Notes: a model not told the origin generated them from the sequence alone. A stretch of 40,586 nt of DNA from a plasmid (GCF_055900595.2 NZ_JBVWEU010000005.1); one strand, 5' to 3'; positions 1-40,586 are shown, numbered from the stretch's first letter. Translations and numbers: made by a program.

Positions 1-3000
1 ATTAGTAGCCTCTGTGATGCTCCCTGCCGTTGCGTAACCTTCGGCCACAATCAACACCGGGGATTCTTTAAGCGCATCCAGCCCGCCAATGACATGGAAA
101 CATCCCTCTTTGCGAGCGTTTTTGGCAAAACGTTTTGTGCCATCCTCGTTGATGTACTGCATAGTCCATTGCTTACCATGGACATCATAAGCAGGAATAA
201 AGGTTTTCTGTCCGTCCTTATCAGTGAACACACCTTTATGTACCTGCAGCCCTTTCTTCTTCAGGTAAGCAGTTTGCTGCTGAGGTTCATTGAGTTTAGC
301 GAGCTGCTTTTGAACACGCTTTGCAGAGGACTCATGGTCTTTTTGCTGCTGTGCCGCTTTTTCGGCCTGTTTCTGAGCAGCCTGCGCCCGCAGGAGCGCT
401 TTTTCTTCGTCGGACATCACATTTCCTTTGGAAGACCAGCGTAACTCTTCTTTGGTGCGGTTGTTCTGCATGAAGCCTGCAGGATGGCCGTCAGTATAGA
501 TGATATAAAAACCTGACTTTTCCCCTTTCTTGTCTCCCTCTACCGTGATCCGATGCTTCTTACCATCCATAATTGGATGTTTCTGTCCTTTGTCAGTATC
601 GGCATCAAGGATGCACCCAATATCTTTCAGCGCGGTTTCTACTTCCTCCTTTAGCGTCATGGCCGGTGACTGTTCGATCACCACATTTTCCGGTTTCCAC
701 TTCGCCAGTTTTTGCATATCTGCCCCAGCTTCGGCATACCAAGTTTTTTTCTCTTTGTCCCATTTAGCACCAGCTGCTTTAGCTTCTGCGCGGTCTTTAT
801 AAGGGACAGCCAGATTCTGACGCTCACCCACTTTTGGCGTTACTTCTTTCACAGATACGACAGATGAATTTTTTTCTGCAGTTGGCCCACCAACCCATTT
901 TGCAAATTTATCCAGAGATACACCTTTTGGTACAAACCAGGTCTGTTCGGTTCGATCCCATTTTGCCCCAAGCGTTTTAGCTTCATTGCGTTCTTTGTAG
1001 GGGACATTGATTGGAGTATTTTCCTGCGCAACGTTCAGACTGAATGCCGGAAGAATTCGCCCTCCATCTTCACCAAGGAAAACCGCCTCATTATCTCCCG
1101 GTTCTGGGCCAAGCGCATCCAGAGCGCTTTTCAGTTCATCCGGGCTGTCAGCGCCCTCCATCAGGCCTTCAACACGGTCTTGATACCATTCCTGTGCTTC
1201 TCCTGGTGGGAGCACGCTAATCTCATCATCAGGCTTGATAATACCTTGCTTTAAGGCTGCTTTTTCTGCTTCAAGTGTTTGATAAAAATTGTTCTGCAGG
1301 TCATTCAGATCAACCTTACCGTTATTGATGAGACGTGAGTCATAAATTGAACGGTTATCCCCTTCGTTAACAGCGGCCAGCGCCTTAACTGCACTGTTGG
1401 TCTGCATGATTATATTCACATGCTCATTCTGACCAGGATTTTCCACAATGTTATATTTCGGCTCAGGTAGAAGTGATAATGCAAAATCAATCTCACGGTA
1501 TGCGCTCTTGATCTTGTCCTGAGCCTCATTCCAGTTTTGACTGAACGAAGAATGAAATTCCTTGTTACGCTGCCAAAAATCACTATCCTGATTGCTATTT
1601 TGAGCATCATAGAGAACGTTTCGTGACAACGTAAGCTGGCGACGGTTCATATTCTGAACGTGCTTAGAAAGACCACTATCGAGATTCGAAAGAATAAATT
1701 TCTCTGCACGATACTGGCGCTGCTGCGCTGATGTAATAGACGTTTCAATTTTAGTGGTCATATCAGCCTCTGCAGCTGCTTTTGAGTTCTCCACATTTGG
1801 GGTCGACGCCAGAAAACTGGAATTAGGCCACCAGTTTTTAGGAAACTTAACATCCTGCGGTAATTCTCGCGGGTCTCCACTGATATTTTCAATCTGACTA
1901 TGAACTTTTTTAGCGACTAAAGTTAGGTTGTTATCTATGCTGGCGAAAGCGGTTTTAAGAGCATTGCTTTGCCATTCATTATCGGATGAAAATCCCGTTC
2001 CGGGGACACGCTCATCACCGATATATGTCAATGCTTTTCCACGCCCAACCACATCAGTATGAACAGGAATAGTATTTCCATTACTGTCTTCGTAATTAAC
2101 CCGAATAGTTTCTTCGCCCAGCTCACCAGTGCCACGGCTGTAATAGGTAACGTAACCAGCTTCCTCAGCTGTCTGCTCCAGTGTCATGAATGTGAAATGA
2201 TAGAGTTGAGCTGTTTCCGCATCGAAAATCTGCGGGTTAGTCAGCCGCTGTACCTCAGCCATTACCTCATTATGCTCTTTTTCGCGCTGCTCTCTTTCCA
2301 GAGTTACCGGTTGTTCCTGTATTCTCTGTTGTTCAAGGCCCAACACAAACCCCTGGATTTTTTCAGCATCAGCTGCTGCACGGAAAATTTCCAGCGGATC
2401 ATCCTGTAAGGCTTTAATCCAGGATTTTACATAGGCAACATGCTGGGAAGGGTCATGACCTATCCCCAGTTCATCGCCAATGATCATACTGGCAATCTCT
2501 GCGCGTAGTTCTTCTCTGGCGTAACCTTCACTTCCAAAAGGATGGGACAGGTCACGATCAAGACGCGATGCGTGACCTGTCCAGTGGCTCAATTCATGAA
2601 GTGCAGTGGCATAGTAACGATCAGCACTTGGAAAGGAAGCCTGCTGCGGCAAATGAATGCTGTCTGTAGACATACGGTAAAAAGCCCGGTCTACCTGGTC
2701 ATGAGAGATTTTCGCGCCAGAGGCTTCGAGAATAGATTCAGCACGTTCAATACTGTTCCAGCTCTTATCTTGGCGAACGGCCATCGGCGGTAGACCGTCA
2801 ATCTGCTCCGCATTAAACACAACTGCGTTAAATACCTTCGGTCGCTCCAGTTGGACAGTTTCTTTTACCGGTTTATCGTCTTTATCGAGCACAACGCTAC
2901 CATCATCGTTGCGTTTGATGCGTTCCTCAGTAAATTTCCAGTATTGGATCGGCGTGCCTTTTTCGCCTCTCCTTACCTGCGCATTTGCAGCCGTCGCCTG

Positions 3001-3222
3001 CTTATAGGTCATCCAACGTTGATCGCTATACCCCTGCGCCATAAGGTGAATAGCGTTAATGCCTTTATAACGTTTACCCGTCGTAGGGTTCATAGGCAAT
3101 GCGACACCAGGAGCGCCGGGGTTCCATGGTTTCTGCCATGGAGCTGTCCCCTCTTTAAGCTGGGCTATCAGGTTTTCAGCCACAATCTCATAAAATGGTT
3201 TTTTCGCTTTAGCTTCTGCCAT
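1..3222 (-). CDS. traC: TraC-like DNA primase, N-terminal ~1074 codons (ArdC-like domain, tandem ~40-aa repeats, Toprim EGYATA motif); ORF runs off the left window edge
   Basis: Hand translation of the minus strand from ATG at 3220-3222 (SD GGAG upstream) stays open to position 1: MAEAKAKKPFYEIV..., with HELSH (HEXXH) motif and ending ...LIVAEGYATAGSITEATN. Not in the ORF track because it has no stop inside the window. Confidence 0.8.
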   Translation of the reverse strand, partial: MAEAKAKKPFYEIVAENLIAQLKEGTAPWQKPWNPGAPGVALPMNPTTGKRYKGINAIHLMAQGYSDQRWMTYKQATAANAQVRRGEKGTPIQYWKFTEERIKRNDDGSVVLDKDDKPVKETVQLERPKVFNAVVFNAEQIDGLPPMAVRQDKSWNSIERAESILEASGAKISHDQVDRAFYRMSTDSIHLPQQASFPSADRYYATALHELSHWTGHASRLDRDLSHPFGSEGYAREELRAEIASMIIGDELGIGHDPSQHVAYVKSWIKALQDDPLEIFRAAADAEKIQGFVLGLEQQRIQEQPVTLEREQREKEHNEVMAEVQRLTNPQIFDAETAQLYHFTFMTLEQTAEEAGYVTYYSRGTGELGEETIRVNYEDSNGNTIPVHTDVVGRGKALTYIGDERVPGTGFSSDNEWQSNALKTAFASIDNNLTLVAKKVHSQIENISGDPRELPQDVKFPKNWWPNSSFLASTPNVENSKAAAEADMTTKIETSITSAQQRQYRAEKFILSNLDSGLSKHVQNMNRRQLTLSRNVLYDAQNSNQDSDFWQRNKEFHSSFSQNWNEAQDKIKSAYREIDFALSLLPEPKYNIVENPGQNEHVNIIMQTNSAVKALAAVNEGDNRSIYDSRLINNGKVDLNDLQNNFYQTLEAEKAALKQGIIKPDDEISVLPPGEAQEWYQDRVEGLMEGADSPDELKSALDALGPEPGDNEAVFLGEDGGRILPAFSLNVAQENTPINVPYKERNEAKTLGAKWDRTEQTWFVPKGVSLDKFAKWVGGPTAEKNSSVVSVKEVTPKVGERQNLAVPYKDRAEAKAAGAKWDKEKKTWYAEAGADMQKLAKWKPENVVIEQSPAMTLKEEVETALKDIGCILDADTDKGQKHPIMDGKKHRITVEGDKKGEKSGFYIIYTDGHPAGFMQNNRTKEELRWSSKGNVMSDEEKALLRAQAAQKQAEKAAQQQKDHESSAKRVQKQLAKLNEPQQQTAYLKKKGLQVHKGVFTDKDGQKTFIPAYDVHGKQWTMQYINEDGTKRFAKNARKEGCFHVIGGLDALKESPVLIVAEGYATAGSITEATN

Positions 3223-3227
3223 GGCCC

Positions 3228-3413
3228 TTACTCCGCATCAAAAGCGCTTTCGTATGCGTCACGTACATTCAGCGCATCATCTTCGAATGCCCCCACAAGA
3301 TCAGCCTCATCGGGAGAAAATTCGACTACATATCCCGGTGTCATCAGATCGCGATATTTTTCCTGTATTGCGTCGTTAACATCAGGGCGAATTACTGCAT
3401 TAGTATCAGTCAT
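3228..3413 (-). CDS. small acidic protein (TraD-like position between topoisomerase and primase)
   Basis: 61-aa acidic ORF tightly packed between the two genes; position matches traD in RP4 Tra1. Weak sequence-level support. Confidence 0.4.
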   Translation of the reverse strand: MTDTNAVIRPDVNDAIQEKYRDLMTPGYVVEFSPDEADLVGAFEDDALNVRDAYESAFDAE

Positions 3414-3428: not shown

Positions 3429-5459
3429 TTAAGCGCGTTTTATGGGGTTATAGTTTGGACTACCTTTAATATCTGGGTACGACTCCTTACAATTGGGATA
3501 ACCACTGCAAGACCAGAAGTGACCGGATTTTTTGGACGGACGACGAATAAGTCCTTTACCACATACCTTGCATTTGTACTTGTCAGAAATTTGCACACCA
3601 CCGGCAACTTTGATAGCTCCGGCATTAATAACCTTAATCTGCTCTCGTACAAATTTTTCCTGAATCTTCACAAAAGAATCAACGTCACGTTTCCCCTGCT
3701 CTATTTCCAGTAACATACGTTCGTTGATGGCTGTCATTACCGGGCTTTTAACAAGTTCTGGCAGAATGGCTATCAGCCCCCTTCCCAGCTTGGTACTGAT
3801 AATGTCTTTGCCTTTGTTTTCAATAAAACCACGTTTCTTTAAATCAGCAACAATTGTGGCGCGGGTAGCTGATGTGCCAATACCATCACCTTCCCGCAGT
3901 AATTTTTTCTGAGCCGGGTCTTCAACATACTTATGAATATTTTCCATTGCAGTGTTGAGTGTACCGTCATTAAAACGACGCGGAGCTTTAGTTTTAGCAT
4001 CCTGCCGCTGTGCCTGAGCACAAATAATTTCGTCACCATTTCTCATTGATGGAAGAGTCTGTTCAGACTCATTTTCTTTTTCTTCTTCATCCTCTCCATC
4101 TGAATAAACATCCTTCCATCCATTTTTAGTCGTTACGCGACCACCGGCCCCAAATGTTTCACCATTAACATCAATAATAATTGATGTCGCTTTATATTCA
4201 TGTACTGGATAAAATTGAGCCAAGTATGTTCTTACGATAAGGTCGTAAATATTACGCTCTTCTGGCGTAAGCCTTTCAACGTTACCTTTGTGCATCGTTG
4301 GGATAATGCCGTGATGCGCTGTAACCTTAGAGTCATCAAAAGTTTTTGATTTTACTTTTGGATCAGCCTTATCGATTAGAGCAGCTATTCCCGGATAAGT
4401 AACCCGAAGAGAATCCAGAATTTGAGGTGCATCTGCGTGTTGAGATTCAGGCAAATAAGAACTATCAGAACGTGGATAACTGGTAAGTTTATGCGTTTCA
4501 TAAAGAGACTGGCATATAGCCAGCACTTGCTCACCAGAATAACCAAACTTACTTGAAGCAACAGCGGTGATACTGCCAAGAGAATAGGCTTTTGGATGAT
4601 ATTTTTTCTTTGGCTCTTGCTTATATTCAACAACCTTACCGGATTTTCCGGTTAAAGCCGCTACTAGCTTATCAGCTTCTTTAGTGTCAATAAGCCTTCC
4701 CTCTGAATCAAGCCCTGGCTGATCTTCTCTGGCCTGCCATGCCGCAACAAACGCTCCTTTGTCATGTTTAAAGACAGCTTTAATATTGTGATAAGGAATT
4801 GGTTTGAAGTTTTCAATTTCGAGATCGCGGGCAACAACAAGTGCCAGCGTTGGTGTCTGAACTCGCCCGACCGTCAACAGAACACGCGAGCCACCACGCG
4901 CTGCCGACAACGTGAATCCTCTTGAAAGGTTCATTCCAACCAACCAGTCAGCCCGACCACGCGCAAGAGCTGCACGTCCAAAATTTACATATTTATCGTT
5001 GTTCTCAAGTCCTTTCAACGCCCTTGTGACACTTACCGTATCATTCGCATTACACCAGTAACGCAGAACCGGTTTAGTACATCCCATGTCATCAAGGATT
5101 TCATCAACCAGTAACTGCCCCTCGCGATCTGGATCGCCAGCATTTACAATCGTGTCAGCTCGCTCAACCAAATGCTGGATGGTTTTCAGCTGTTTCTCAG
5201 CATCTTCACGAGGATTAATAATCCATTTTTCGGGGATAATTGGCAGTTCATCTTCTCGCCAGATTTTTTTACCGCTTTCATTACGAGGCACATTGTCTGG
5301 TGTATATTCATCAGGTTCAGCCTGCTCAAACATATGACCAAAACACCAAGTCACATAGTCACTGCCGCACTCAATGTAACCGTCTTTTTTATTGGTTGCG
5401 CCTAATACCTCAGCGATAGCCCTTGCAACCGTCGGTTTTTCTGCAATAAATACTCTCAT
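3429..5459 (-). CDS. traE: DNA topoisomerase III (TraE-like), with C-terminal zinc ribbon
   Basis: 676 aa; N-terminal Toprim (MRVFIAEKPTVARAIAEVLG), C-terminal CxxC...C..C; strong SD (GGGAG); position as in RP4 Tra1. Confidence 0.85.
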   Translation of the reverse strand: MRVFIAEKPTVARAIAEVLGATNKKDGYIECGSDYVTWCFGHMFEQAEPDEYTPDNVPRNESGKKIWREDELPIIPEKWIINPREDAEKQLKTIQHLVERADTIVNAGDPDREGQLLVDEILDDMGCTKPVLRYWCNANDTVSVTRALKGLENNDKYVNFGRAALARGRADWLVGMNLSRGFTLSAARGGSRVLLTVGRVQTPTLALVVARDLEIENFKPIPYHNIKAVFKHDKGAFVAAWQAREDQPGLDSEGRLIDTKEADKLVAALTGKSGKVVEYKQEPKKKYHPKAYSLGSITAVASSKFGYSGEQVLAICQSLYETHKLTSYPRSDSSYLPESQHADAPQILDSLRVTYPGIAALIDKADPKVKSKTFDDSKVTAHHGIIPTMHKGNVERLTPEERNIYDLIVRTYLAQFYPVHEYKATSIIIDVNGETFGAGGRVTTKNGWKDVYSDGEDEEEKENESEQTLPSMRNGDEIICAQAQRQDAKTKAPRRFNDGTLNTAMENIHKYVEDPAQKKLLREGDGIGTSATRATIVADLKKRGFIENKGKDIISTKLGRGLIAILPELVKSPVMTAINERMLLEIEQGKRDVDSFVKIQEKFVREQIKVINAGAIKVAGGVQISDKYKCKVCGKGLIRRPSKKSGHFWSCSGYPNCKESYPDIKGSPNYNPIKRA

Positions 5460-5566: not shown

Positions 5567-6100
5567 TTACCAGGTCATTACAGGTAATATCGTAGAAATA
5601 ATCTGTGACTTTGTGACCGCGCCGAAATATCTCCCGTCAAATGAAGATGCGCTGCGGTCAGTCATCAGCAACAGTTCTGATTTACCCAACGTGTACACTT
5701 CACGAATGGCGGGCAGTTTACGCCCGCCCGGATCAACACTTAACGGCTTGCTGTAAGGCAATAACTGTCCGTTGACGTAAACACCATCATCACGAAAAGC
5801 AACTTCATCACCTTTAGCCGCTAAAATCCGCTTCATCATCTCGCCATACCCCCCTGGACAAAAGCCGCTGCCGATGTAACCACGCTTCTGTGCCAGTGAG
5901 AAAATAGCCTTTTCAGGCGGGCAGAAAATTACATAGTCGCCCTTCTCTGGCGCTTTCTGGCTGATTTTGTACAAGCCAACAGGGATACTTTTCGTGGTAT
6001 TGATGCGTAACCCGGCGGCATATCCAAAGCCACACACAACTGCACCAATCAATGAAGCCGAAATAACACCAATGGCGGCATAGCGGGTCATTTTTTTCAT
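5567..6100 (-). CDS. traF: TraF pilin-maturation peptidase (signal peptidase-like)
   Basis: 177 aa, N-terminal TM segment, 4-bp overlap with traG stop; position conserved downstream of traG. Confidence 0.75.
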   Translation of the reverse strand: MKKMTRYAAIGVISASLIGAVVCGFGYAAGLRINTTKSIPVGLYKISQKAPEKGDYVIFCPPEKAIFSLAQKRGYIGSGFCPGGYGEMMKRILAAKGDEVAFRDDGVYVNGQLLPYSKPLSVDPGGRKLPAIREVYTLGKSELLLMTDRSASSFDGRYFGAVTKSQIISTILPVMTW

Positions 6101-8040
6101 ATTGCGATAGCCTCATTACTGGCGTCATCATTCGCGGCAGCTACAGCTCGAATCCGATCGGTAACTTTTGGTGCAGGTACAGAAGCACGAAGCGAGAAAA
6201 TCTCATCTTGGAAAAACAACGGCTGTTTTCCATAGATAGCCGGAAAACCTGCCACATAAATAACCATGTCACCGCGCTCGGTAATCAGACCTTCAGCATT
6301 CTTCTTAGGTCCTGGCATACGCAGGCATTCATCCACTGTCAGAAGTGGGCGCTGTACTTCCTGAATGGTTTTGGATACTCCACCCAATATCGCACTGGCA
6401 CGTTTCCCGCTGGTTGTGATCTGCTCTTTGATAACCGTTGTCTGTCCAGTCAACTTAGAAAGGTGCTCTGCAGTCTCAGTACGGTTAGGTGGATATGCGT
6501 TCTGCACATGGCAGTTAGAGGTTATTGTTTCATCCGGCCCATAACCTGTTTCACGGCTACGCAACTGATTAATATCCTGGCAGATGAGGTAGAACTTGAT
6601 GCCATAACCTGCAAGGAAAGCCAATGATTCCTGAATGATTTCGAGTTTACCCAGACTTGGAAACTCATCGATCATTCCCAGAAGACGATGTTTGTAGGTT
6701 TTCTTTGTCTGTACTCTTTTTGTTCCCTGAACTGAAAAACCAAACGCCTGTTTAAAACGCTGCCATAACGTAAGGTTGTTATCTACACGCTCAAATTCCA
6801 TCTTGTCAGCCAGCAAACGAACAATCATGTTCAGCATGATTCGTACCAGCGGACGCAGACGAGCTTTATCATTAGGCTGAGTAACGATATACAGCGAAAC
6901 CGGATCATCATGATTCATCAGGTCTTTTATTTTAAAATGTGACTCACTGACGTTACGAGCCACAACTGGATCACGGAAAAGGGCGAGATAAGATTTTGCG
7001 GTAGACAGCACGGAACCGGCTTCTTCTTCCGGGCGGTCCATCATGTCACGACCGGCAGCCCCCACCACCGGATGATTCTCGCCATTTATGTGACTATATT
7101 GCGTCATTTCCATCCACAATTCCCCTGCCCCTCTTTCCGGGTCGGCCATGATGGAGTCAACATACGGAAGCGTTGCTGGCGTACCTTCATTTTTGTGCTT
7201 GTAAAGTACATGGAGGATCACACCGACTAAAAGCGCCTGGGATGTTTTCTGCCAGTGGTCATTTAGTCCTTTACCGTCCGGGTCAACTATCAGCGTGGCA
7301 AGATTCTGAACGTCGCCAACTTCGTTTTCAGTGCCCACACGGATTTCATCAAGAGGATTCCAAGCGACGGAACCATTAGCTGCAGCAGGTTCGAATTTCA
7401 GACACAGATTCTTGGCATATTCTTTACGCCAGCCCGCCGTCATCGCCCACAGTTCACCTTTAAGGTCAGCCACTACCGTTGAATGTTTCCAGGAAAGCAA
7501 GGTGGGAACAACCAGGCCGACACCTTTGCCAGAACGGGTAGGTGCATACGTCAGAACATGTTCCGGGCCGTTGTGACGCAGATACCGCAACTGACCGTTT
7601 TTGTCTTCCCACGCACCAACATAAACACCTTCATCATTCAGCAAACCAGCATCTCTGATATCCTGCTCATCAGCCCATCTTGCAGAGCCATGAAGATATT
7701 CGTTAGCCTTGGATGAATTTGCTTTCATCATACTTGTCAGCGCGGTCAGAACTAGGCCACCGGCAGCAACCGCCGCCCCCACACTGCCAGCAGCAAAAAA
7801 CGCATCAGGTAAGCGCTCATGCCATGCTGAATACCATTTGAAATAGGACCACGGCGCATAGATGTGATTAAAGTTCGGCCCCAACAGTTCCTGATAATTA
7901 AAGCTGTAAGCAAAATACTGTGTGGCGGCCTGAATGCCAGCCGCCAGTGAAGTTATAGCCATCGCCGGGATCAGTTTCCCTTTCGCTGCCTTCTTTTTAT
8001 TACGGACCTGCGGCCCTACGGCATTATTTGGCTTTCTCAT
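6097..8040 (-). CDS. traG: type IV coupling protein (TraG/VirD4 family ATPase)
   Basis: 647 aa, N-terminal TM segments, Walker A-like PTRSGKGVG; perfect SD AAGGAG upstream. Confidence 0.9.
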   Translation of the reverse strand: MRKPNNAVGPQVRNKKKAAKGKLIPAMAITSLAAGIQAATQYFAYSFNYQELLGPNFNHIYAPWSYFKWYSAWHERLPDAFFAAGSVGAAVAAGGLVLTALTSMMKANSSKANEYLHGSARWADEQDIRDAGLLNDEGVYVGAWEDKNGQLRYLRHNGPEHVLTYAPTRSGKGVGLVVPTLLSWKHSTVVADLKGELWAMTAGWRKEYAKNLCLKFEPAAANGSVAWNPLDEIRVGTENEVGDVQNLATLIVDPDGKGLNDHWQKTSQALLVGVILHVLYKHKNEGTPATLPYVDSIMADPERGAGELWMEMTQYSHINGENHPVVGAAGRDMMDRPEEEAGSVLSTAKSYLALFRDPVVARNVSESHFKIKDLMNHDDPVSLYIVTQPNDKARLRPLVRIMLNMIVRLLADKMEFERVDNNLTLWQRFKQAFGFSVQGTKRVQTKKTYKHRLLGMIDEFPSLGKLEIIQESLAFLAGYGIKFYLICQDINQLRSRETGYGPDETITSNCHVQNAYPPNRTETAEHLSKLTGQTTVIKEQITTSGKRASAILGGVSKTIQEVQRPLLTVDECLRMPGPKKNAEGLITERGDMVIYVAGFPAIYGKQPLFFQDEIFSLRASVPAPKVTDRIRAVAAANDDASNEAIAI

Positions 8041-8212
8041 GGACTTGCTCCTTTATGTTCCAGTCATCAGCGGTGACGTCCATCACGTTTAACAGTTGTT
8101 GAACCTTGCCTGTATTCAGGCTGGCTTCGTTTGGGTTTCCTGCCAATGCACCACCATGCCCCGTATTTAGCATGGCGAGTAACAGCCCTAATTCTTCGGA
8201 ATTTTGTTTCAT
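8024..8212 (-). CDS. small Gly-rich ORF bridging the traI stop and traG start
   Basis: 62-aa ORF; its start overlaps the traI stop and its end overlaps the traG start. Could be real (translational coupling) or chance. Confidence 0.25.
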   Translation of the reverse strand: MKQNSEELGLLLAMLNTGHGGALAGNPNEASLNTGKVQQLLNVMDVTADDWNIKEQVHEKAK

Positions 8213-11230: not shown

Positions 11231-11464
11231 TTGACCTCACTCGCGGCGGTAGCCGCGTAGCCTCGCAGAGCAGGACTCCCCTTGAGAATCGAAGATGCGA
11301 ATAGGGGAGAGTAAAGTTTGATAACCTGTTTACAGGTTAGCTAACTTTACATGTCCTGCCCGGCTTTCGCCGGTGTTTACGCCAAGGAAAGTCTACACAA
11401 AGAAAAGTGGAATGTCGTGTTTTTTGATGTAAAACTGTGGATATAACGAAAAAACGGCGTTACT
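11231..11464. other. oriT: origin of transfer (oriT) between divergent traJ and traK
   Basis: Imperfect 17-bp inverted repeat 11313-11329 / 11332-11348, followed by TGTCCTGCCCGGC resembling the RP4 nic region ATCCTG/CCCGGC; predicted nic between 11358 and 11359. Confidence 0.75.
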
Positions 11465-11565: not shown

Positions 11566-11578
11566 CGCAGGTTATCGG

Positions 11579-29613: not shown

Positions 29614-29615
29614 TA

Positions 29616-30059: not shown

Positions 30060-30062
30060 AAG

Positions 30063-31457: not shown

Positions 31458-31469
31458 TAGGGGAAGACG

Positions 31470-32240: not shown

Positions 32241-32252
32241 GGTGGTACTCCT

Positions 32253-32426
32253 ATGAAATATATCATTCCTCTCATTCTGTCGGCGTTTTTTATCACTGCT
32301 TGCGACCCAAAAACCGATCCCAACCAGGTTGATTGCAATAAGTCAGTATCAAAGATGACTGACCAGGAAAAAACGCAATGTGGTAAATCAGGCGAATTTA
32401 CAAAAAGCCCCGAAAAGAAATGGTGA
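32253..32426 (+). CDS. trbK: TrbK-like small lipoprotein (candidate entry-exclusion protein); below the ORF-track size cutoff
   Basis: Hand-translated 57-aa ORF MKYIIPLILSAFFITACDPKTD... with lipobox FITAC, between trbJ and trbL as in RP4. Confidence 0.55.
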   Translation: MKYIIPLILSAFFITACDPKTDPNQVDCNKSVSKMTDQEKTQCGKSGEFTKSPEKKW

Positions 32427-32430
32427 CAGA

Positions 32431-33975: not shown

Positions 33976-33985
33976 GGCTATTAAT

Positions 33986-34294
33986 ATGAAAAAATATCTA
34001 TCAGTTACATTGATGGCATTATCTATTAGTATTTACAGCATTCCAACAAAGGCGGCAGATCCATGCCAACCCGTATTATGCATGTGGGGATTGGTTGCCA
34101 CAGGTAGTGTCCAGGATGGTTGTTCGGGGAGTGTGAACAACTATTTCAGTCAAATCAGCTTCAAGCATGGAAAATTCAGCGCAAGTCGAACAGAGAAAAA
34201 AAGAAGAGGATGGCTAACTAATAATTGTCCATCAGCTTCACCTGCTTACGTAGATAAAATACAGAATAAATTTGGTCGTCTACGCTTTTTTTGA
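33986..34294 (+). CDS. small secreted Cys-containing protein (TrbM position)
   Basis: Track ORF 33932..34294; the internal ATG at 33986 starts a signal peptide MKKYLSVTLMALSISIYSIPTKA. Confidence 0.5.
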   Translation: MKKYLSVTLMALSISIYSIPTKAADPCQPVLCMWGLVATGSVQDGCSGSVNNYFSQISFKHGKFSASRTEKKRRGWLTNNCPSASPAYVDKIQNKFGRLRFF

Positions 34295-34309
34295 CAAAAG
34301 GGAAATAAT

Positions 34310-35083
34310 ATGCCGTATTTAGATATTCCACCGGCTCAGGTTGAACGTGTAGTTTGCTCAATTACTGCAGCGATAAAATATCAGGTTCCGGCTAACATCA
34401 TGTTAGCCATAGCTGAAAAAGAGGGTGGTCGTCCCGGACTTGAGAATAAAAACCGTAACTCAAACGGCACATATGATATAGGCCGTATGCAGTTTAATAC
34501 GGTTTATTTAAAGGATCTGGAAAAATACGGCATTACAGAAGAAGATGTAGCACAGCCAGGCTGTTATTCGTATGATTTGGCTGCGTGGCGTATACGCGGC
34601 CATATCAAAAATGATAAGGGAGATATCTGGACAAAAGCAGCAAATTATCATTCAAAAACGCCTCAATTTAACAAGGTATATCGTGCTGACCTGATCAGAA
34701 AAGCAGCTAAATGGCAGACCTGGATTGAAGCTCGCTTTAATACATTTGACACAACGAAACCTGCAGGAACGACTACTCCACTGCCTCAACAGGCGACGGT
34801 TGGAGTTACGCCAGAAGAAAGAGCAGGGAAAAACATTACACTGGTTACTAACCTTGCACAAAGCGACACACTCGCTACAGAACCGCCCAAAAATGACGGA
34901 ACAACAGTAACACCGACTACACCGAATCAACTTATTGGTTTTTCCGCTTCTGTAAAACAAATACCGGTTGAAAGCGTCGTAAAAGCTGACTATCAGCAGC
35001 CCACACAGCAACTACCGGGTCGTTATAACAAGGCTGCAGCTGATGCACTGGCTGCAGTATATGGAAATATCAAACTACGTTGA
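34310..35083 (+). CDS. trbN: lytic transglycosylase (TrbN/VirB1-like)
   Basis: 257 aa; transglycosylase-like segment AIAEKEGG...YDIGRMQFN; last gene of the trb block. Confidence 0.7.
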   Translation: MPYLDIPPAQVERVVCSITAAIKYQVPANIMLAIAEKEGGRPGLENKNRNSNGTYDIGRMQFNTVYLKDLEKYGITEEDVAQPGCYSYDLAAWRIRGHIKNDKGDIWTKAANYHSKTPQFNKVYRADLIRKAAKWQTWIEARFNTFDTTKPAGTTTPLPQQATVGVTPEERAGKNITLVTNLAQSDTLATEPPKNDGTTVTPTTPNQLIGFSASVKQIPVESVVKADYQQPTQQLPGRYNKAAADALAAVYGNIKLR

Positions 35084-35247
35084 TTTTTGCGTCTAGCGTC
35101 TAAAACATGCTAATGCTGGTCGTGTCGTTATGCCTCTTTTTTGCTTTGTTCTGGCGTATTAAGGGCGGGGAGGGACCATTCCTCACCCTTTAATAAAAGA
35201 AGTTAGAAACCAAAACATTTATACGTTTGTTATGCATTATTAAATAA

Positions 35248-36345: not shown

Positions 36346-36711
36346 TTATTTAATTATGTTTTCTGATGCATGGAGCAACCAGTAGAATATAATCATTCCC
36401 GCACCAGAAAACACTGCGGCGACAGCGAGCCACAAACGCTTATGCACTCCTTCTGATATGCCTGAGAAATATCCTGTATGGAGTAGCAGCAGCGACCATG
36501 ACAACCCTCCTGCCAGACCCAGCAGGGCAGGAGGGATATGCCACAGTTCATATTTCATAATAACAATACCTTCTGCCATCATCATGGACAGAGTGCAAAC
36601 AACAAAACAGTCCCATGAAAAAAAACGCCTGTCAGCAGCAAGAAAAATCACTGTCAGTGACATCACTGTCACTTGGGCCAGCAATAAAGGCCATAAAGAA
36701 ATAAAATTCAT
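36346..36711 (-). CDS. small integral membrane protein
   Basis: 121 aa, 3-4 hydrophobic helices; upstream of the recombinase on the same strand. Confidence 0.45.
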   Translation of the reverse strand: MNFISLWPLLLAQVTVMSLTVIFLAADRRFFSWDCFVVCTLSMMMAEGIVIMKYELWHIPPALLGLAGGLSWSLLLLHTGYFSGISEGVHKRLWLAVAAVFSGAGMIIFYWLLHASENIIK

Positions 36712-36771
36712 TTAATCTTCTCCTCAAGTGCCTTTAAAGTAAATGCGTAGGCTAGTTAATTAAGGTATACC

Positions 36772-36803
36772 CTAAAAAACCACTCGGTGAGTGGCAGGTT
36801 TTT
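36772..36803. terminator. bidirectional hairpin terminator
   Basis: CCACTC-GGT-GAGTGG stem-loop flanked by an A-run on one side and a T-run on the other. Confidence 0.45.
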
Positions 36804-37012
36804 TACTGCACTCACAGTGTAAACTGGCCAGGACAATCAAGGCAACCTTAAAAAGCCATCAATGTGATAAAAATGACATGACATCACTTTTATCACTTTT
36901 TAATGTGGTAGCATCATCTAATGTTGAATCATTAATTACTGTCATTTACTACAAGATTTACGCCATAAGAAAAAAAGCAAAACTCGTAATATTAGCTATC
37001 AGCAGCTACGAT

Positions 37013-37025
37013 TTTAGCCGCTAAA
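37013..37025. promoter_or_regulatory. KorB operator (OB) TTTAGCCGCTAAA
   Basis: Perfect 13-bp palindrome. Confidence 0.8.
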
Positions 37026-37039
37026 AGATTCTCTTACTT

Positions 37040-37663
37040 CTATTTATCTTTAAATTCATCCTGCAGCTTATCAATGCCTTTAGTTAAATCTTGACTTTTA
37101 CCATCTTTATAATCAGGCCATGGAATAAACATCTTTCCTGATTCCTGCATCATTGCAATTGATGTAGGACAGCGCCATTCAGATTCATCACCTTTTTTGT
37201 ATTTAAAAACAACCATTCCACGTTCACACTTAACATCGGGGGAAATGGACTGAATAAACATCGAATTAGCGGAACCATTCTCACCGGCATTGAACATTGC
37301 GCTGTCAAAAAATATAAATGCGAGAATTAATGAGAGAACGGCACAACCAGTATTCCAGAATTTCTTTCCACGTTCGGAATAAAATGAAAACATCATCACC
37401 ATTGCTAGAGATGAAATAAAACCTAACCATTGTGACGCAACTGAAAGTTGTGAAAGCGTTTTAACTGTATAACCACCTTCACCAGAAAGGAAAGACAAAA
37501 TAAACGGTGAAACAATAAAGCAAATTGCTGGAAAACAGGTAAATATCAGTTTGGCATTATTCTTGATTAACTGGCGCTCTCCAGAAGCCGCCGCGATCAT
37601 CGACTGCCACATGATTTTTACCAGCGTCAGCATCAGAACACTGCAGATCAACATATAAAGCAC
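37040..37663 (-). CDS. membrane protein with C-terminal soluble domain, under two putative OC operators
   Basis: 207 aa, about 4 TM helices then a charged C-terminal region; function unknown. Confidence 0.55.
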   Translation of the reverse strand: MLYMLICSVLMLTLVKIMWQSMIAAASGERQLIKNNAKLIFTCFPAICFIVSPFILSFLSGEGGYTVKTLSQLSVASQWLGFISSLAMVMMFSFYSERGKKFWNTGCAVLSLILAFIFFDSAMFNAGENGSANSMFIQSISPDVKCERGMVVFKYKKGDESEWRCPTSIAMMQESGKMFIPWPDYKDGKSQDLTKGIDKLQDEFKDK

Positions 37664-37706
37664 GGCTTACTCCCAATCCTTAGACGCTTTGAAAACCACT
37701 TGCAAA

Positions 37707-37723
37707 TAGGACAAAATGTCCTA
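37707..37723. promoter_or_regulatory. putative KorC-type operator TAGGACA-AAA-TGTCCTA
   Basis: Perfect 17-bp palindrome 44 bp upstream of the 207-aa gene. Confidence 0.55.
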
Positions 37724-37732
37724 TCATAGATG

Positions 37733-37749
37733 CAGGACATAATGTCCTA
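37733..37749. promoter_or_regulatory. putative KorC-type operator CAGGACA-TAA-TGTCCTA
   Basis: Second copy 10 bp from the first; tandem arrangement. Confidence 0.5.
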
Positions 37750-37816
37750 TATGAAGGATGATAGGGAGGCAGCAACCTCCCTATCCGACACCTAAAATCC
37801 GTGCAAGGAATTTGAA

Positions 37817-38023
37817 ATGTCCCATATATCCTATAGCAAAACAGCATCATATGACAGACGGCCACTGGAGTATCTTTCCCTGTCAGATTTCATCCATGCT
37901 CTTCCAACCGTTACCATTGATGAGATTGAAAAACTCGCTGAGACAAACATCCACTTGGTCGAGCAGATACCACGTTACCTGAGCCAAATGGTCAGCCATG
38001 AATGCAGACTTATTGGTTTTTAA
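37817..38023 (+). CDS. small ORF in the divergent intergenic region
   Basis: 68 aa with AAGGA-like SD; may be a leader or regulatory peptide, or spurious. Confidence 0.25.
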   Translation: MSHISYSKTASYDRRPLEYLSLSDFIHALPTVTIDEIEKLAETNIHLVEQIPRYLSQMVSHECRLIGF

Positions 38024-38097
38024 TAGATCTTATTAAAAATAAATAGATACATATAGAATCAATTTGAAACTTTTAATGAAGACAAACCGCCCTCATT

Positions 38098-39084
38098 ATG
38101 AAGCCACACACTCTCCCAAAATGGTGCGTTATGAAAAAATTTCAGGTCAGAAATTTCCCGGACGATGCATATTTCGCCTTGGAACAGTTAGCAAACGAAA
38201 ATCAACGTTCGGTCGAAGGTGAGGCCCGCTATGCTCTGTTGAAATGGATAGCACCTCCTGAGCAGGTTTATTCTGGAGAAGAACTATACCGGCAGGAAGT
38301 GTCTGGCCGCCTCAATACAGTTCTGCGGAAAACCAACCAATTCCGTAACTACAAACCTCTTGTGCCGTCCAATGTGGCCGTAGAGCTGAGGATTGAAGAT
38401 CTTGGCCTTGTCGCCAACTGGTTCAGTGGTGACGTACTCCCTTCCTTCACTGAGCTGCAGCGGTTAAGCAAGTTATTTGGTTGTCGCGCCGACTGGTTAA
38501 TTCACGGTGAGGGGGATGTGTATGAATGGAACTCAGGCGTCAGAATGCACGGCGCAGGCCGGGCTGCTGTTAAGCACCTTCTCAGACCTGATAGTGATGG
38601 TAATAAAGTCACAGACATCAGGCTGCTAAGAGAAGATAGTGATATAGGAGCACTTCTGATACTCCGTGAGTTTGAAAATACACGGTATGTTGATGCGTTC
38701 TGGACAAACCTACACGTAAGTGAAGCCATTGGAGCCGGTGGCGAGTCTGATTTGGCTGATTTTTTTGTCACTCTTCGGGCGCTGTACAAGAGTTTTGTCA
38801 AACTTGATGTAAACGTCAAAGGCTACCTTATGCCGCGATCTGCCTATAAGCAAATCAGAGAAGAGGAACAAGCCTATCCACTGATGCTTCTCAAGGATTA
38901 TCGTGTAAATGAAAGCATGTGGTGGGAGGATATTTGGGATAAAAGTCAAAGAGGTAAATTTAATTACTGGAAAGGTGATGAGGCGCTGATTCGTCGCATT
39001 GAAGATGCAATAAAGCGTAATAAAAGATTGCTTGATGAAATTGAAGCTATTAAAAACTCAGATCCTTTGGACCATGATGATTAA
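38098..39084 (+). CDS. multidomain protein: Arc/MetJ-type ribbon-helix-helix, XRE-like HTH and a ~180-aa C-terminal domain of unknown function
   Basis: Segment MKKFQVRNFPDDAYFALEQLANENQRSVEGEARYALLKW resembles RHH proteins; ...LSKLFGCRADWLIHGEG resembles the end of an XRE HTH. True start may be the ATG at 38131. Confidence 0.55.
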   Translation: MKPHTLPKWCVMKKFQVRNFPDDAYFALEQLANENQRSVEGEARYALLKWIAPPEQVYSGEELYRQEVSGRLNTVLRKTNQFRNYKPLVPSNVAVELRIEDLGLVANWFSGDVLPSFTELQRLSKLFGCRADWLIHGEGDVYEWNSGVRMHGAGRAAVKHLLRPDSDGNKVTDIRLLREDSDIGALLILREFENTRYVDAFWTNLHVSEAIGAGGESDLADFFVTLRALYKSFVKLDVNVKGYLMPRSAYKQIREEEQAYPLMLLKDYRVNESMWWEDIWDKSQRGKFNYWKGDEALIRRIEDAIKRNKRLLDEIEAIKNSDPLDHDD

Positions 39085-39095
39085 CGTTCATTTAT

Positions 39096-39108
39096 TTTAG
39101 CCGCTAAA
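39096..39108. promoter_or_regulatory. KorB operator (OB) TTTAGCCGCTAAA
   Basis: Perfect 13-bp palindrome 12 bp after the stop of the RHH-HTH gene. Confidence 0.8.
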
Positions 39109-39118
39109 AATTAACAAT

Positions 39119-39146
39119 AGCCGGGGTTTACCCGGCTGTTTTATTT
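39119..39146 (+). terminator. rho-independent terminator
   Basis: Hairpin AGCCGGG-GTTTA-CCCGGCT followed by GTTTTATTT. Confidence 0.55.
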
Positions 39147-39356
39147 CACATTCCGCCAGGCAGACGCAGGAACCTTATCCCAGATTTTTCCATGATAAAT
39201 TTCTGCCTTGCGATGATCATAAGCACTCAGAAAATCGCTAAGATGTTCAGAAGAAACAATGTCCCGCTTATGTTCATAAAGGCGTTCAACTGTATCTATC
39301 GTTCTGCAACGCCGGAACATATACAAAAACTCGGACCTTTTATCTGAATGACTCAC
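39141..39356 (-). CDS. small hypothetical protein downstream of the lipoprotein gene
   Basis: 71-aa ORF whose first codon is GTG; overlaps the lipoprotein stop. Confidence 0.3.
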   Translation of the reverse strand: MSHSDKRSEFLYMFRRCRTIDTVERLYEHKRDIVSSEHLSDFLSAYDHRKAEIYHGKIWDKVPASAWRNVK

Positions 39357-39844
39357 TTAGTTAGTCCTTTTGCCTTAGCCTGTTCTACTGCATCTGCAAT
39401 ATCTTTAATCATTTCGCTCATTACATCAGCGCTGAACAACGGGCCTGCCGAAGTCATTACGGCGACATGATACAGCTTTAGCGGTGTGCCTTTGCTGTAT
39501 TGCTCGCTGGAACTAATGCTCAAAACGGAGTAAGACACCTTTTCAGTATTCGAGCCGCAAACCTTTTTATTGACATCAATAATACGGCTGTCTTTATTTT
39601 TCGAAAGAGTCTGTGTAAGTACACCAGAGTAAATACATTTATCGTCGTGTGATATTAAGTTTATTTCCTTCGGCGTAATGTCATTTTTTTCAATCGGAGT
39701 ATCTAGCATCACCATTATTGGTGTTTCATCAGCGTTTCCTTTTATCATATTATCAACAATTCCACAGCCAGCACATGGAAATCCGGTGGCATAAGTTAAA
39801 GGGGTAAAAATTAATAAAAACGCTGCGATATATATCTTTTTCAT
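39353..39844 (-). CDS. secreted protein or lipoprotein of unknown function
   Basis: 163 aa with N-terminal signal peptide MKKIYIAAFLLIFTPLTYA; low GC; downstream of the primase gene. Confidence 0.5.
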   Translation of the reverse strand: MKKIYIAAFLLIFTPLTYATGFPCAGCGIVDNMIKGNADETPIMVMLDTPIEKNDITPKEINLISHDDKCIYSGVLTQTLSKNKDSRIIDVNKKVCGSNTEKVSYSVLSISSSEQYSKGTPLKLYHVAVMTSAGPLFSADVMSEMIKDIADAVEQAKAKGLTK

Positions 39845-39989
39845 TTTCTGTCCTTAAAAGTAATCTTTTGATGCATTTAATTTTACCATTAAAACGAGCG
39901 CAAATTAGTGAGCGGTCCGCTCTTTTCCCTCCCTATTCCACGAGAGTAAACCATTTACTGGCCCGCAGGCAGGCCAGAGTCAGAACATC

Positions 39990-40586
39990 TTACATAGCGT
40001 GGCGAATGGTCCGTTTTTTCTCTTTTTCCTGAATGAGTTTCTTCTCTTCGGTCTGGACCTGTGACTGCTGCTGTTTTTTATTCAGCTGGTCAGCAATGAC
40101 GGCTTTCAACTGCATCGCCACACCTTCCCGGCCAAGAGAACTATTTACGGCCAGATCGTTAAAGTCAGTATAACGATCAGCACGGCGAATAATATCAAGC
40201 TGCTTTTCCGATAACTGTGCTGCCTGCAGAACCTTCACTTCGGCATCCGAGAGTGGCTTATCACCGCTCGTATGGGCCTCCAGTTTGCGCGAGGCGGTCT
40301 GGTGTGCAAGATACGCCGCCGGTTTAATCTGGCTGAGTTCGTCTTTACCAGGTAATTCACCTTTAGCAAAAACCGGAAACACAGCCACACCGCCGACAGC
40401 TTTCGCTGTTTCCAGCGCTTTTTCCCTACCGACGTTTACACTGGCTTTATCCTTCACCTTCATTTTGCATGACTGAGAAATATCATCATCACCGGCAATG
40501 ATGATTGGCTTATCGGGGTAGGCTTCTTTAAGCGTTTTCGCGACAGATTCCAGATTACCTGAATCGAAGGCGGCGACCGTTGGTAT
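39990..40586 (-). CDS. traC: C-terminal part of a Toprim primase (IIIAGDDD motif); most likely the continuation of traC across the window junction
   Basis: Minus-strand frame is open from 40586 to the stop at 39990: IPTVAAFDSGNLESVAKTLKEAYPDKPIIIAGDDD... The codon phase matches the left-edge ORF exactly. Confidence 0.6.
   Translation of the reverse strand: MPTVAAFDSGNLESVAKTLKEAYPDKPIIIAGDDDISQSCKMKVKDKASVNVGREKALETAKAVGGVAVFPVFAKGELPGKDELSQIKPAAYLAHQTASRKLEAHTSGDKPLSDAEVKVLQAAQLSEKQLDIIRRADRYTDFNDLAVNSSLGREGVAMQLKAVIADQLNKKQQQSQVQTEEKKLIQEKEKKRTIRHAM

Follow-up and report, generated by a model that had tools for sequence, protein, structure and literature searches.

A 40,586-bp plasmid without resistance genes or mobile elements, placed in the low-GC, Enterobacteriaceae-associated branch of IncP-1

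We analysed a stretch of plasmid DNA of 40,586 nucleotides (hereafter, the window). It spans a single circular plasmid in full, opened inside traC. The circular record NZ_CP075702.1 (40,792 bp) is collinear with it at 99.6% identity, and traC, when read across the window junction, is intact (1272 aa) and 100% identical to its counterpart in that record; therefore, the window represents a complete circular replicon. The modules follow each other in the order traC-D-E-F-G-I-J, oriT, traK-L-M, kfrC-kfrB, korB-incC-korA, kleE-korC-klcB-klcA, oriV, trfA-ssb and trbA to trbN. The coding density is 89% and the longest gap is at most 776 nt. The features are as follows.

1..3222, minus strand: traC, N-terminal 1074 codons, continuing at 40586..39990
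3228..3413, minus strand: traD (61 aa)
3429..5459, minus strand: traE, DNA topoisomerase III (NF005829, 718 bits)
5567..6100, minus strand: traF, conjugative signal peptidase
6097..8040, minus strand: traG, coupling protein (NF010453, 1123 bits)
8209..10842, minus strand: traI, MOBP relaxase (NF041893, 533 bits against a cut-off of 250)
10871..11230, minus strand: traJ, oriT-binding regulator
11231..11578: oriT region
11579..13238, plus strand: traK, traL and traM
13396..14451, minus strand: kfrC and kfrB
14452..15031: gap at the site of RK2 kfrA, with an OB kept at 14949-14961
15032..17156, minus strand: central control operon korB, incC (short form only) and korA
17215-17226 and 17247-17259: OA and OB, respectively, upstream of the korB-incC-korA operon
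17358..18199, minus strand: overlapping genes for orf83 and a 196-aa zeta-toxin-family P-loop kinase (zeta196)
18275..20590, minus strand: kleE, korC, klcB and klcA, with OC-like operators at 18650-18664 and 20645-20659
20591..21119: variable, AT-rich klcA-oriV spacer, including orf82
21120..21675: oriV, with a GC-rich block, AT-rich GGTTAAA repeats, DnaA boxes and iterons
21662..22989, minus strand: trfA (292 aa, TrfA2-type only) and ssb
23094..23498, plus strand: trbA regulator, with OA (23025) and OB (23056) in the divergent promoter region
23750..35083, plus strand: trbB, C, D, E, F, G, H, I, J, K, L, M and N, P-type mating-pair-formation T4SS
35112..35180, plus strand: trbP remnant (16-24 codons)
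35248-35616, minus strand: HTH regulator, after the resolvase gene
35648-36262, minus strand: ParA-type serine resolvase
36346..39844: block of non-core genes, comprising hyp121 (minus), hyp197 (minus; weak upf31.7 homologue), two OC-like operators (37708-37748), hyp317 (plus; RHH and HTH), an OB operator (39096), a Hha homologue (39141-39320, minus) and hyp163 (minus)
39990..40586, minus strand: C-terminal part of traC, where the window was linearised

Among the transfer proteins, TraI, TraG, TraJ, TraM, TraF and TrbA, D, E, G, J, L, N and K scored above the curated NCBIfam cut-offs, and TrbB passed the TIGR02782 equivalog. TraL, TrbC, TrbF, TrbH and TrbI fell below theirs; the calls of TraL, TrbC, TrbF and TrbI rest on homology. 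TraC has ArdC-N, zincin metallopeptidase, two DUF5710 and Toprim primase domains, and is 76% identical to the TraC of pDS1. The order of the trb genes is the same as that in RK2, and trbO was not found in the window. A traH-like ORF (8523-9014) overlaps inside traI in another frame (50% identity to pKJK5 TraH in tblastn, E = 8e-34). In the oriT region, an inverted repeat, AACCTGTTTACAGGTT, at 11324-11339 and a variant of the nic region at about 11340-11356 are both spanned by an Rfam traJ-II match (11259-11361, minus strand). Aligned by eye to the RP4 nic region, the window reads ACATGTCCTGCCCGG, and its putative nic hexamer, GTCCTG, is one base off the canonical ATCCTG.

The origin carries DnaA boxes at 21357 and 21519 and eight TrfA iterons at 21367-21675, arranged as 6 + 2 and lying 22 bp apart within the six. 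The 17-bp iterons (reverse complement, TGACACTTGAGGGGC) fit the IncP-1 consensus TGACA(C/G)(A/T)TGAGGGGC and retain G and C where these are conserved in the RK2 iteron consensus. One iteron overlaps the stop codon of trfA, leaving a tight oriV-trfA junction. TrfA matches Pfam PF07042 with E = 1.4e-144 and is 72%, 73% and 70% identical to the IncP-1α, β and ε proteins, respectively. The short TrfA2 is the sole form encoded; the long forms TrfA1 and IncC1 are both absent from the window.

Twelve KorB operators (TTTAGCSGCTAAA; 8 exact, the other 4 with a single mismatch) are present in the window against a chance expectation of 0.04, and the identical scan gave 12 in IncP-1α and 12 in IncP-1β. 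OA, on the other hand, occurs only twice, at the korA promoter and at the trfA/trbA promoter, compared to seven in the IncP-1α plasmid pBS228. Four OC-like palindromes were observed with the variant half-site AGGACA/TGTCCT (that of α is AGGGCA); the control scan on pBS228 gave three. The operator set had been described from the sequence alone as matching RK2. This description holds for OB, but the RK2-type set of 7 OA and 3 OC is not reproduced, which is a difference of degree that still allows membership of the family.

We used pBS228 (RK2/RP4-type α), the β plasmid of B. ambifaria AMMD and the ε plasmid pKJK5 as classical IncP-1 references. These plasmids match the window in the arrangement of the modules for replication, control, Tra1 and Trb, and they share with it the iteron consensus, the 12 OB and the OA/OB placement at the korA and trfA/trbA promoters. 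The assignment of the backbone to the IncP-1 type was thus borne out by TrfA with an iteron-bearing oriV, korA-incC-korB with its 12 OB, the MOBP relaxase TraI and trbA to trbN. The core proteins are, however, only 36-73% identical to those of the classical plasmids, and the window is without their TrfA1, IncC1, kfrA, korF/G, kleA-D/F, klaABC, parBCDE, trbO/P, upf30.5/31.0 and traA. For kfrA, there is no ORF of at least 66 aa on either strand of 14452-15031, and tblastn with the α, β and ε KfrA proteins gave no match in the window. The RK2-like gene order claimed earlier therefore stands for the modules from traC to trbN, but not for kfrA.

The GC content of the window is 45.36%, which is below the 59-66% of classical IncP-1 plasmids, as had been claimed, but also below the earlier by-eye value near 50%. 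GC3 is 0.42, compared to 0.55 in a sample of E. coli genes. The RSCU of the window correlates with that of E. coli (r = 0.70) and not with that of IncP-1β (r = -0.04). The codon usage proposed to be enterobacterial is hence closer to E. coli than to IncP-1β, although AT-richer than that of E. coli itself.

About eight genes lie outside the core; several are hypothetical, and the others comprise the zeta-toxin-family kinase pair, an HTH regulator and the Hha homologue. The plasmid is, therefore, not gene-minimal. The orf83/zeta196 pair, which is not found in pDS1, pMCR16_P053, α, β or ε, is a putative lineage-specific toxin-antitoxin or addiction pair. Together with the Hha homologue, the regulators and the hypotheticals, it may plausibly serve stability and host adaptation. 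The ParA resolvase is 65% identical to the IncP-1α ParA and 84% identical to that of pDS1.

NCBIfam scans detected no resistance gene, transposase, IS or integron in the window, and a near-identical deposited record has no AMRFinder/RGI rows. Neither terminal repeats nor scars of transposons or IS elements were found in the window, and catabolic and virulence genes are also absent; the sole recombinase is the backbone ParA resolvase homologue. These scans, together with the coding density, agree with the sequence-only reading, in which no such elements had been recognised. The plasmid is an empty vehicle, without resistance genes or mobile elements. The description as cargo-free is true only in this respect, because about eight non-core genes are carried. 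Near-identical relatives have insertions of blaCMY-42, ISEcp1, IS91 or Tn3 (in pEC27-5, blaCMY-42 sits in the klcA-oriV interval), and mcr-1 (e.g. mcr-1.6) or blaKPC-2 occurs in plasmids farther off in the clade.

The lack of cargo could be secondary or artefactual, if the window had recently arisen by deletion from a resistance plasmid, or if an insertion had been collapsed during assembly. Deletions have happened, since kfrA and two small traE-traF ORFs of the relatives are missing. The trbP remnant points in the same direction, and accessory genes could vanish during plasmid capture (PMC9499019). Against this, the window shows no terminal repeats or scars and has a tight oriV-trfA junction, and the same empty structure recurs in many independent complete records (39-42 kb) drawn from varied hosts, countries and sources. 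We consider this origin very improbable.

The closest relatives are pSTEC2018_607-e of E. coli (NZ_CP075702.1; 40.8 kb, 99.6% nucleotide identity over 99% of the window) and pCFSA664-2 of Salmonella enterica (CP033354; 41.7 kb, 98.4% over 98%). Both have a gene order like that of the window, an identical TrfA and equal counts of operators (12 OB, 2 OA, 4 OC). They differ from it at 20682-21076, between klcA and oriV, where the sequence is replaced in both; E. coli CD09 plasmid 5 and pMCR16_P053 have this segment in common with the window. In addition, pCFSA664-2 departs at 37105-37616 and is just 86-90% identical over traI-5'/traJ/oriT (10-12 kb). For each window half, 25 to 48 PLSDB records reach a coverage of 80% or more; among 5,426 complete E. 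coli genomes, 39 gave a match of at least 95% identity. All the close relatives come from Enterobacterales.

Two plasmids are more distant. pMCR16_P053, an mcr-1 plasmid of the 'new unnamed IncP clade', is 86-100% identical in proteins and 92% in nucleotides; it has the module order and OC variant of the window, a GC content of 47% and 13 exact OB sites, and shares Hha, hyp163 and the ParA resolvase. At the position of orf83/zeta196 it has klaC and DUF2688. Unlike the window, the mcr-1 IncP plasmids, of which pMCR_1511, pHNFP671 and pHS102707 are further examples in the literature, carry mcr-1-pap2 together with further cargo between trbN and traC. The IncP-1η plasmid pDS1 (KC170283; 40,596 bp, GC 47%) is like the window in being without resistance genes, encoding only the short TrfA, lacking kfrA and having the same module order. 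It differs in its backbone proteins other than TrfA, which reach only 64-92% identity, in having trbP, parB, higBA and a TlpA-domain gene, and in being without Hha, hyp317, zeta196 and AGGACA-type OC sites, all of which the window has.

Over 15 concatenated proteins, the identity of the window to α, β and ε is 58-61%, as against 72-83% among these three. In a neighbor-joining tree of these proteins (4,467 columns; γ, δ, ζ, θ, ι, κ, λ, μ, ο and ρ references left out), it joined pCFSA664-2, then pMCR16_P053 and then pDS1, with a bootstrap of 100 at each step, and α, β and ε stood apart. This backbone phylogeny had been proposed as a check on the IncP-1 assignment. TrfA is 94% identical to that of pDS1 and 87% to that of pMCR16_P053, whereas all other backbone genes rank these two the other way round: outside TrfA, the proteins are 86-100% identical to pMCR16_P053 as compared with 47-92% to pDS1 (76% at the nucleotide level). 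The plasmid appears, from these identities, to be a mosaic. Because TrfA and the remaining backbone disagree on the nearest relative, its subgroup label depends on the marker.

The divergence from α, β and ε, and replicon typing by MOB-suite as rep_cluster_2175 instead of 'IncP', would fit a previously unrecognised, naturally minimal IncP-1-like lineage, which the sequence-only reading had implied. The divergence is real; minimality fails on the non-core genes, and novelty is refuted by the database and literature matches, so that this view has next to no probability left. Deposited plasmids are 98.4-99.6% identical, and dozens of relatives of about 41 kb are in public databases. pCFSA664-2 was assigned to IncP/P-1 'clade II' by Hayakawa et al. 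2022 (PMC9499019), where pDS1 is also classified, and related mcr-1 and KPC-2 carriers have been named a new IncP clade since 2017 (PMC5660977, PMC8614947); 'new unnamed IncP clade' is the term of Zhao et al. 2017 and an alias of clade II. In PMC9499019, the group of pCFSA664-2 has only trfA2; kfrA, traH and trbP are scored absent in this plasmid, as are kleA/B and upf30.5. The window repeats this pattern except for its traH-like ORF. The same paper also describes many captured IncP/P-1 plasmids that lack accessory genes. The lineage has already been described and is frequent in E. coli, Salmonella and Klebsiella, and the window is an ordinary member, not a new one.

Taken together, the comparisons argue, with a probability of about 0.93, that the window is a complete self-transmissible plasmid of the low-GC, Enterobacteriaceae-associated IncP-1 branch, clade II, of the pCFSA664-2/pSTEC2018_607-e subtype. 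On the other side stand the GTCCTG hexamer, the mere two OA, the variant OC half-sites, the discordant identities of TrfA and the traH-like ORF. From the homology with RK2, its short TrfA2-type initiator would bind the eight iterons beside the DnaA boxes, and IncC and KorB would provide partition and global repression via the 12 OB sites. KorA (2 OA), KorC (4 variant OC) and TrbA are predicted to join in repression. Multimers would be resolved by the ParA-type serine resolvase. In transfer, oriT would be nicked by TraI and the DNA passed via TraG and the TrbB-N P-type T4SS. The replication, transfer, incompatibility and host range of the plasmid are all predictions.

Compatible with this clade II assignment is the view that the plasmid is IncP-1 genetically but functionally a separate, narrow-host-range enterobacterial type that would be compatible with classical IncP-1 plasmids and would not replicate beyond Enterobacteriaceae. 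We regard it as a serious possibility, at somewhat less than even odds. The encoding of TrfA2 alone, the GC3 and RSCU values, the Hha homologue and the confinement of close relatives to Enterobacterales all favour it. In the same direction, the clade II mini-replicons of pDS1, pMNCG080-1 and pMNCG082-1 failed in P. putida, and some clade II mini-replicons were compatible with mini-pBP136, an IncP-1β mini-replicon (PMC9499019). The paper also gives clade II a trinucleotide composition nearer to E. coli, and a narrower host range for the three clade II plasmids tested. Clade plasmids were not found, or did not replicate, in Pseudomonas (PMC9499019, PMC8614947). Membership of IncP-1 by phenotype is uncertain, because some clade II mini-replicons are IncP-1β-compatible and the clade II plasmids tested did not become established in Pseudomonas (PMC9499019). 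However, mini-pDS1, whose TrfA is the one 94% identical to that of the window, was incompatible with mini-pBP136 (PMC9499019), and the iterons of the window agree with the RK2 consensus at the conserved G and C.

The plasmid (40,586 bp, GC 45.36%) aligned end to end with NZ_CP075702.1 (E. coli pSTEC2018_607-e, circular, 40,792 bp) in three collinear blocks of 98.9-99.9% identity, and the sole alignment break was at window 20682-21076. Both ends of the window lie inside traC, and circularisation restored an intact TraC (1272 aa, 100% identical). Therefore, we concluded that the window is one complete circular plasmid that was linearised arbitrarily. For annotation, the PGAP calls of the near-identical record were moved over by tblastn and the proteins were checked against NCBIfam and Pfam. 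No NCBIfam model matched TrfA, TraC, TraK, KlcA, KleE or KfrB; these were named via homology to annotated IncP-1 genes and Pfam. Coding density was 89%, with a longest gap of 776 nt.

Gene order of the plasmid, read from traC
join 3222..1 and 40586..39990, minus strand: traC
after traC, minus strand: traD, traE (topoisomerase III), traF, traG, traI, traJ
after traJ: oriT, then traK, traL, traM
after traM: kfrC, kfrB, then korB, incC, korA
after korA: zeta-toxin-family kinase and a small overlapping upstream ORF
after the kinase pair: kleE, korC, klcB, klcA, then a variable spacer, then oriV
after oriV: trfA, ssb, then trbA, trbB to trbN
after the trb genes: 4.9-kb region (HTH regulator, serine resolvase, three hypotheticals, Hha homologue, one further hypothetical)

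The modules follow the RK2/RP4 order, as claimed in the sequence-only reading, except that kfrA is missing. Neither strand of the 580-nt interval 14452-15031 carries an ORF above 65 aa, and tblastn with KfrA of α, β and ε plasmids gave no match in the window.

TrfA matched Pfam PF07042 (E = 1.4e-144). We compared 15 core proteins (4,467 ungapped columns) in a concatenated NJ tree, using pBS228 (α), the B. ambifaria AMMD plasmid (β), pKJK5 (ε) and pMCR16_P053 in place of RK2 (BN000925), R751 (U67194), pBP136 (AB237782) and pMCR_1511 (KX377410). pKJK5 was compared up to 50 kb, a stretch that does not include incC, korA, kle and klc.

Identity to the window
pSTEC2018_607-e: concatenated proteins 99.9%; whole-plasmid nucleotide 99.6%
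E. coli CD09 plasmid 5: concatenated proteins 99.2%; whole-plasmid nucleotide 98.8%
pCFSA664-2: concatenated proteins 98.4%; whole-plasmid nucleotide 98.4%
pMCR16_P053: concatenated proteins 95.9%; whole-plasmid nucleotide 92.1%
pDS1 (IncP-1η): concatenated proteins 87.4%; whole-plasmid nucleotide 76.3%; TrfA 94%
α, β, ε: concatenated proteins 58-61%; TrfA 72-73% (α and β), 70% (ε)
mcr-1 IncP plasmids: TrfA 87%
24 PLSDB records: TrfA 100%

The α, β and ε plasmids are mutually 72-83% identical over the same 15 proteins. The window grouped apart from them, and the splits between these groups had bootstrap values of 100. Both the TrfA search and the tree agree with the IncP-1-type backbone that had been proposed.

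[quoted passage not shown] 2022, PMC9499019). Clade II plasmids carry trfA2 only, and pCFSA664-2 is without kfrA, trbP, kleA/B and upf30.5 (PMC9499019). The window reproduces this published gene content, having trfA2 only, no kfrA, kleA/B or upf30.5, and a mere remnant of trbP. The same study found the trinucleotide composition of clade II nearer to E. coli than to Pseudomonas, that the tested clade II plasmids fail to establish in Pseudomonas, that replicons are swappable between otherwise near-identical backbones, and that many captured IncP/P-1 plasmids are without accessory genes (PMC9499019). Related resistance carriers are described as a new unnamed IncP clade in the passages of PMC5660977 and PMC8614947 that cite Zhao et al. 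2017. Dozens of ∼41-kb relatives are present in public data; their hosts are E. coli, Salmonella, Klebsiella and Shigella, and their sources human, animal, food and water. A match at ≥95% identity was found in 39 of the 5,426 E. coli genomes that are complete. Given the published clade, these relatives and the frequency in E. coli, this is a lineage described before and often encountered, not a new one. The suggestion of a divergent, naturally minimal IncP-1-like lineage therefore stands as to divergence (58-61% to α, β and ε) but not as to the novelty it implied (98.4-99.6% to deposited plasmids). The plasmid has small value as a discovery and is useful as context.

Automated typing splits this lineage: MOB-suite calls in PLSDB give rep_cluster_2175 for NZ_CP075702.1, rep_cluster_1242 for pDS1, neither of them 'IncP', and IncP for pMCR16_P053. 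Routine typing can thus miss the plasmid, as its replicon is called rep_cluster_2175; a literature search for this name found no paper.

GC content had been put near 50% by eye; the computed value is 45.4%, next to 47.1% for pDS1, 47.2% for pMCR16_P053, 59.0% for pBS228, 65.8% for the AMMD β plasmid and 60.8% for pKJK5. GC3 is 0.42; sampled E. coli K-12 genes have 0.55 and IncP-1β genes 0.88. The RSCU of the backbone genes correlated with E. coli (0.70) and not with IncP-1β (-0.04). Codon usage leans much more toward enterobacteria than in classical IncP-1, as had been thought, yet is more AT-rich than that of the host. Plasmids are usually more AT-rich than their hosts.

Several other RK2/R751 genes were not found in the window, namely korF/G, kleA/B/C/F, klaABC, parB/C/D/E, trbO, upf30.5/31.0 and traA, and the long TrfA1 and IncC1 forms are missing. 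The remnant of trbP (TraX family) has 16-24 codons, and lies directly downstream of trbN (window 35112-35180, plus strand). It matches the corresponding stretch of pMCR16_P053, where trbP is split, at 100% identity, which speaks for a deletion in the window's sub-lineage. The plasmid illustrates the AT-rich drift of an IncP-1 backbone toward enterobacterial composition, with kfrA, the TrfA1 and IncC1 forms and a number of accessory stability genes lost; these losses fit the narrower host range that was reported for clade II (PMC9499019). A traH-like ORF without PGAP annotation overlaps traI in another frame (window 8523-9014, minus strand, 163 codons; 50% identical to pKJK5 TraH over 117 aa, E = 8e-34); traH was scored absent in pCFSA664-2 (PMC9499019). 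Between traE and traF, two small ORFs of ∼108 aa each are present in CD09 plasmid 5, pEC27-5 and pMCR16_P053 (12473-13125 in the record L009, 5456-6108 in the record L011); the window (5460-5566) and pSTEC2018_607-e are without them, tblastn finding just a trace.

The operators had been said to match those of RK2/RP4. We observed 12 KorB operators (OB; 8 exact, 4 with one mismatch; chance expectation 0.04), only two KorA operators (OA), at the korA and trfA/trbA promoters, and four KorC-type palindromes (OC) with the half-site AGGACA instead of AGGGCA. An identical scan of IncP-1α pBS228 gave 12 OB, 7 OA and 3 OC, the numbers known for RK2, which validates the scan. Relative to RK2, the KorB set is thus alike, the KorA set smaller and the KorC set variant. 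Three of the 12 OB sites are intragenic, at 1909 (traC), 5813 (traF) and 31487 (trbJ); several RK2 OB sites are likewise located inside coding sequences. Overall, the feature is real and its initial classification essentially right; three details were wrong, namely the listing of kfrA, the GC figure and the match of the operators.

The absence of resistance genes, transposases, IS elements and integrons noted by eye was confirmed in the window by NCBIfam, the record annotation and a terminal-repeat scan. The scan for transposon/IS terminal repeats and attI1 returned no match, which is a weak negative. PADLOC gave weak P-loop or HTH matches only, on which no defence system was called in the window. 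The sole recombinase, with 65% identity to the resolvase ParA of IncP-1α and 84% to that of pDS1, is by homology a backbone gene for multimer resolution. pEC27-5, which has the window's replicon type, carries blc-blaCMY-42 between klcA and oriV, pMCR16_P053 has mcr-1.6-pap2 inside the trbN-traC region, and other close relatives bear IS91, ISEcp1 or Tn3-family elements. Both sites are free of mobile elements in the window. The plasmid is therefore an unloaded version of a conjugative vehicle; in E. coli, Salmonella and Klebsiella, backbones nearly identical or sister to it bear blaCMY-42, ISEcp1-associated genes, mcr-1 and blaKPC-2 (PMC5660977, PMC8614947).

TrfA (window 21662-22540) is the only backbone protein nearer to pDS1 (94%) than to pMCR16_P053 (87%), and CP056799.1 combines this backbone with a TrfA of just 75.6% identity. 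Both observations argue for an exchange of replicons inside clade II. Window 10001-12000 (traI 5' end, traJ, oriT and traK) is 100% identical to pSTEC2018_607-e and only 86-90% to pCFSA664-2, with flanks above 98.5%; it looks like a recombination tract over the relaxosome specificity region. The klcA-oriV spacer 20682-21076 is common to CD09 plasmid 5 and pMCR16_P053 and not shared by the two closest plasmids. The population clearly recombines, and recombination was already reported for pMNCG080-1 and pMNCG082-1 (PMC9499019).

Next to korA, the small ORF orf83 and zeta196, a 196-aa zeta-toxin-family/AAA_33 P-loop protein, overlap by ATGA (window 17358-18199, minus strand), where RK2 has kleF and pMCR16_P053 klaC. 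The matches of zeta196 to Pfam Zeta_toxin and AAA_33 are weak. On plasmids of Lactobacillales, Acinetobacter, Agrobacterium and Zymomonas, homologues (30-43%) bear the label 'zeta toxin family'; homologues so labelled are found on plasmids of many phyla, sometimes beside a ParD-like gene. The pair is best read as a putative addiction or toxin-antitoxin-like module. In the trbN-traC region, two KorC-type palindromes AGGACAnnnTGTCCT (37708-37722 and 37734-37748) lie over promoter-like hexamers between the divergent hypothetical ORFs hyp197 and hyp317. This pair of palindromes is also present in pSTEC2018_607-e, pCFSA664-2 and pMCR16_P053 and not in pDS1, IncP-1α or β, which suggests that KorC control reaches into the trbN-traC region. 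The N-terminus of hyp317 (38131-39084, plus strand) is a ribbon-helix-helix (FitA-like), and the protein also matches HTH_3 weakly. This uncharacterised gene is widespread on plasmids: homologues at 25-39% identity occur on over 1,100 of them in enterobacteria, most from Klebsiella, and among the matches listed nearly all are annotated 'hypothetical protein'. PDB sequence searches with zeta196, hyp317, the hypothetical ORF hyp163 and TrfA gave nothing useful. The 59-aa Hha/YmoA-family protein (39141-39320, minus strand) scored 60.8 bits against NF008191, under the 90-bit cut-off. It is present in pMCR16_P053 (83%) and absent from pDS1 and from CD09 plasmid 5, which is without window 39163-39906. 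Taken with the AT-rich composition, this homologue points to a possible interaction with H-NS/Hha silencing in enterobacteria.

The pCFSA664-2-like subtype may be a recombinant, its TrfA (94% to pDS1) being inside a pMCR_1511-type backbone. orf83 with the zeta-family kinase, Hha and the KorC-operator-controlled hyp197 and hyp317 may be an enterobacterial adaptation and stability module and not passive passengers. We tentatively put forward, at a probability of roughly 0.3, a joint reading that combines an η-type replicon within a pMCR_1511-type backbone, lineage genes wired in as an adaptation/stability module, a KorC regulon extended into trbN-traC, and replicon swaps that evade incompatibility. 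If true, replicon swapping would serve escape from incompatibility among co-circulating clade II plasmids.

The likely workings of the plasmid are taken at every step from homology to RK2. TrfA2 on the iterons would, with host DnaA, open the AT-rich region of oriV. There are six iterons at 22-bp spacing and two more (reverse complement TGACACTTGAGGGGC), with DnaA boxes on both sides of the cluster and an adjoining AT-rich repeat block and GC-rich block. The DnaA box count across the window is not above chance, and only the two boxes beside the cluster are meaningful, because of their location. IncC and KorB would carry out partition and, with KorA, KorC and TrbA, repress the replication, maintenance and transfer operons via the mapped operators; ParA would resolve multimers. 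TraC, which has ArdC-N, zincin and Toprim domains (Pfam), and KlcA are likely to aid establishment and restriction evasion in the recipient. orf83/zeta196 could have an addiction or toxin-antitoxin-like role, and the Hha homologue might interplay with host H-NS/Hha silencing. In transfer, TraJ, TraK, TraI and probably a TraH-like protein would form the relaxosome at oriT, which TraG would couple to the TrbB-N T4SS; TraF would mature the TrbC pilin and TrbK would confer entry exclusion. oriT has an inverted repeat (11324-11339) and a putative nic-region variant ACATGTCCTGCCCGG (about 11340-11356), one base from the canonical ATCCTG|C. The only Rfam match of the window, traJ-II RNA RF01760 (11259-11361, minus strand; 99.9 bits, gathering score 40), spans both. 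Because of this overlap, the traJ-II 'RNA motif' may partly reflect conserved oriT DNA structure, instead of or besides a traJ 5' UTR element.
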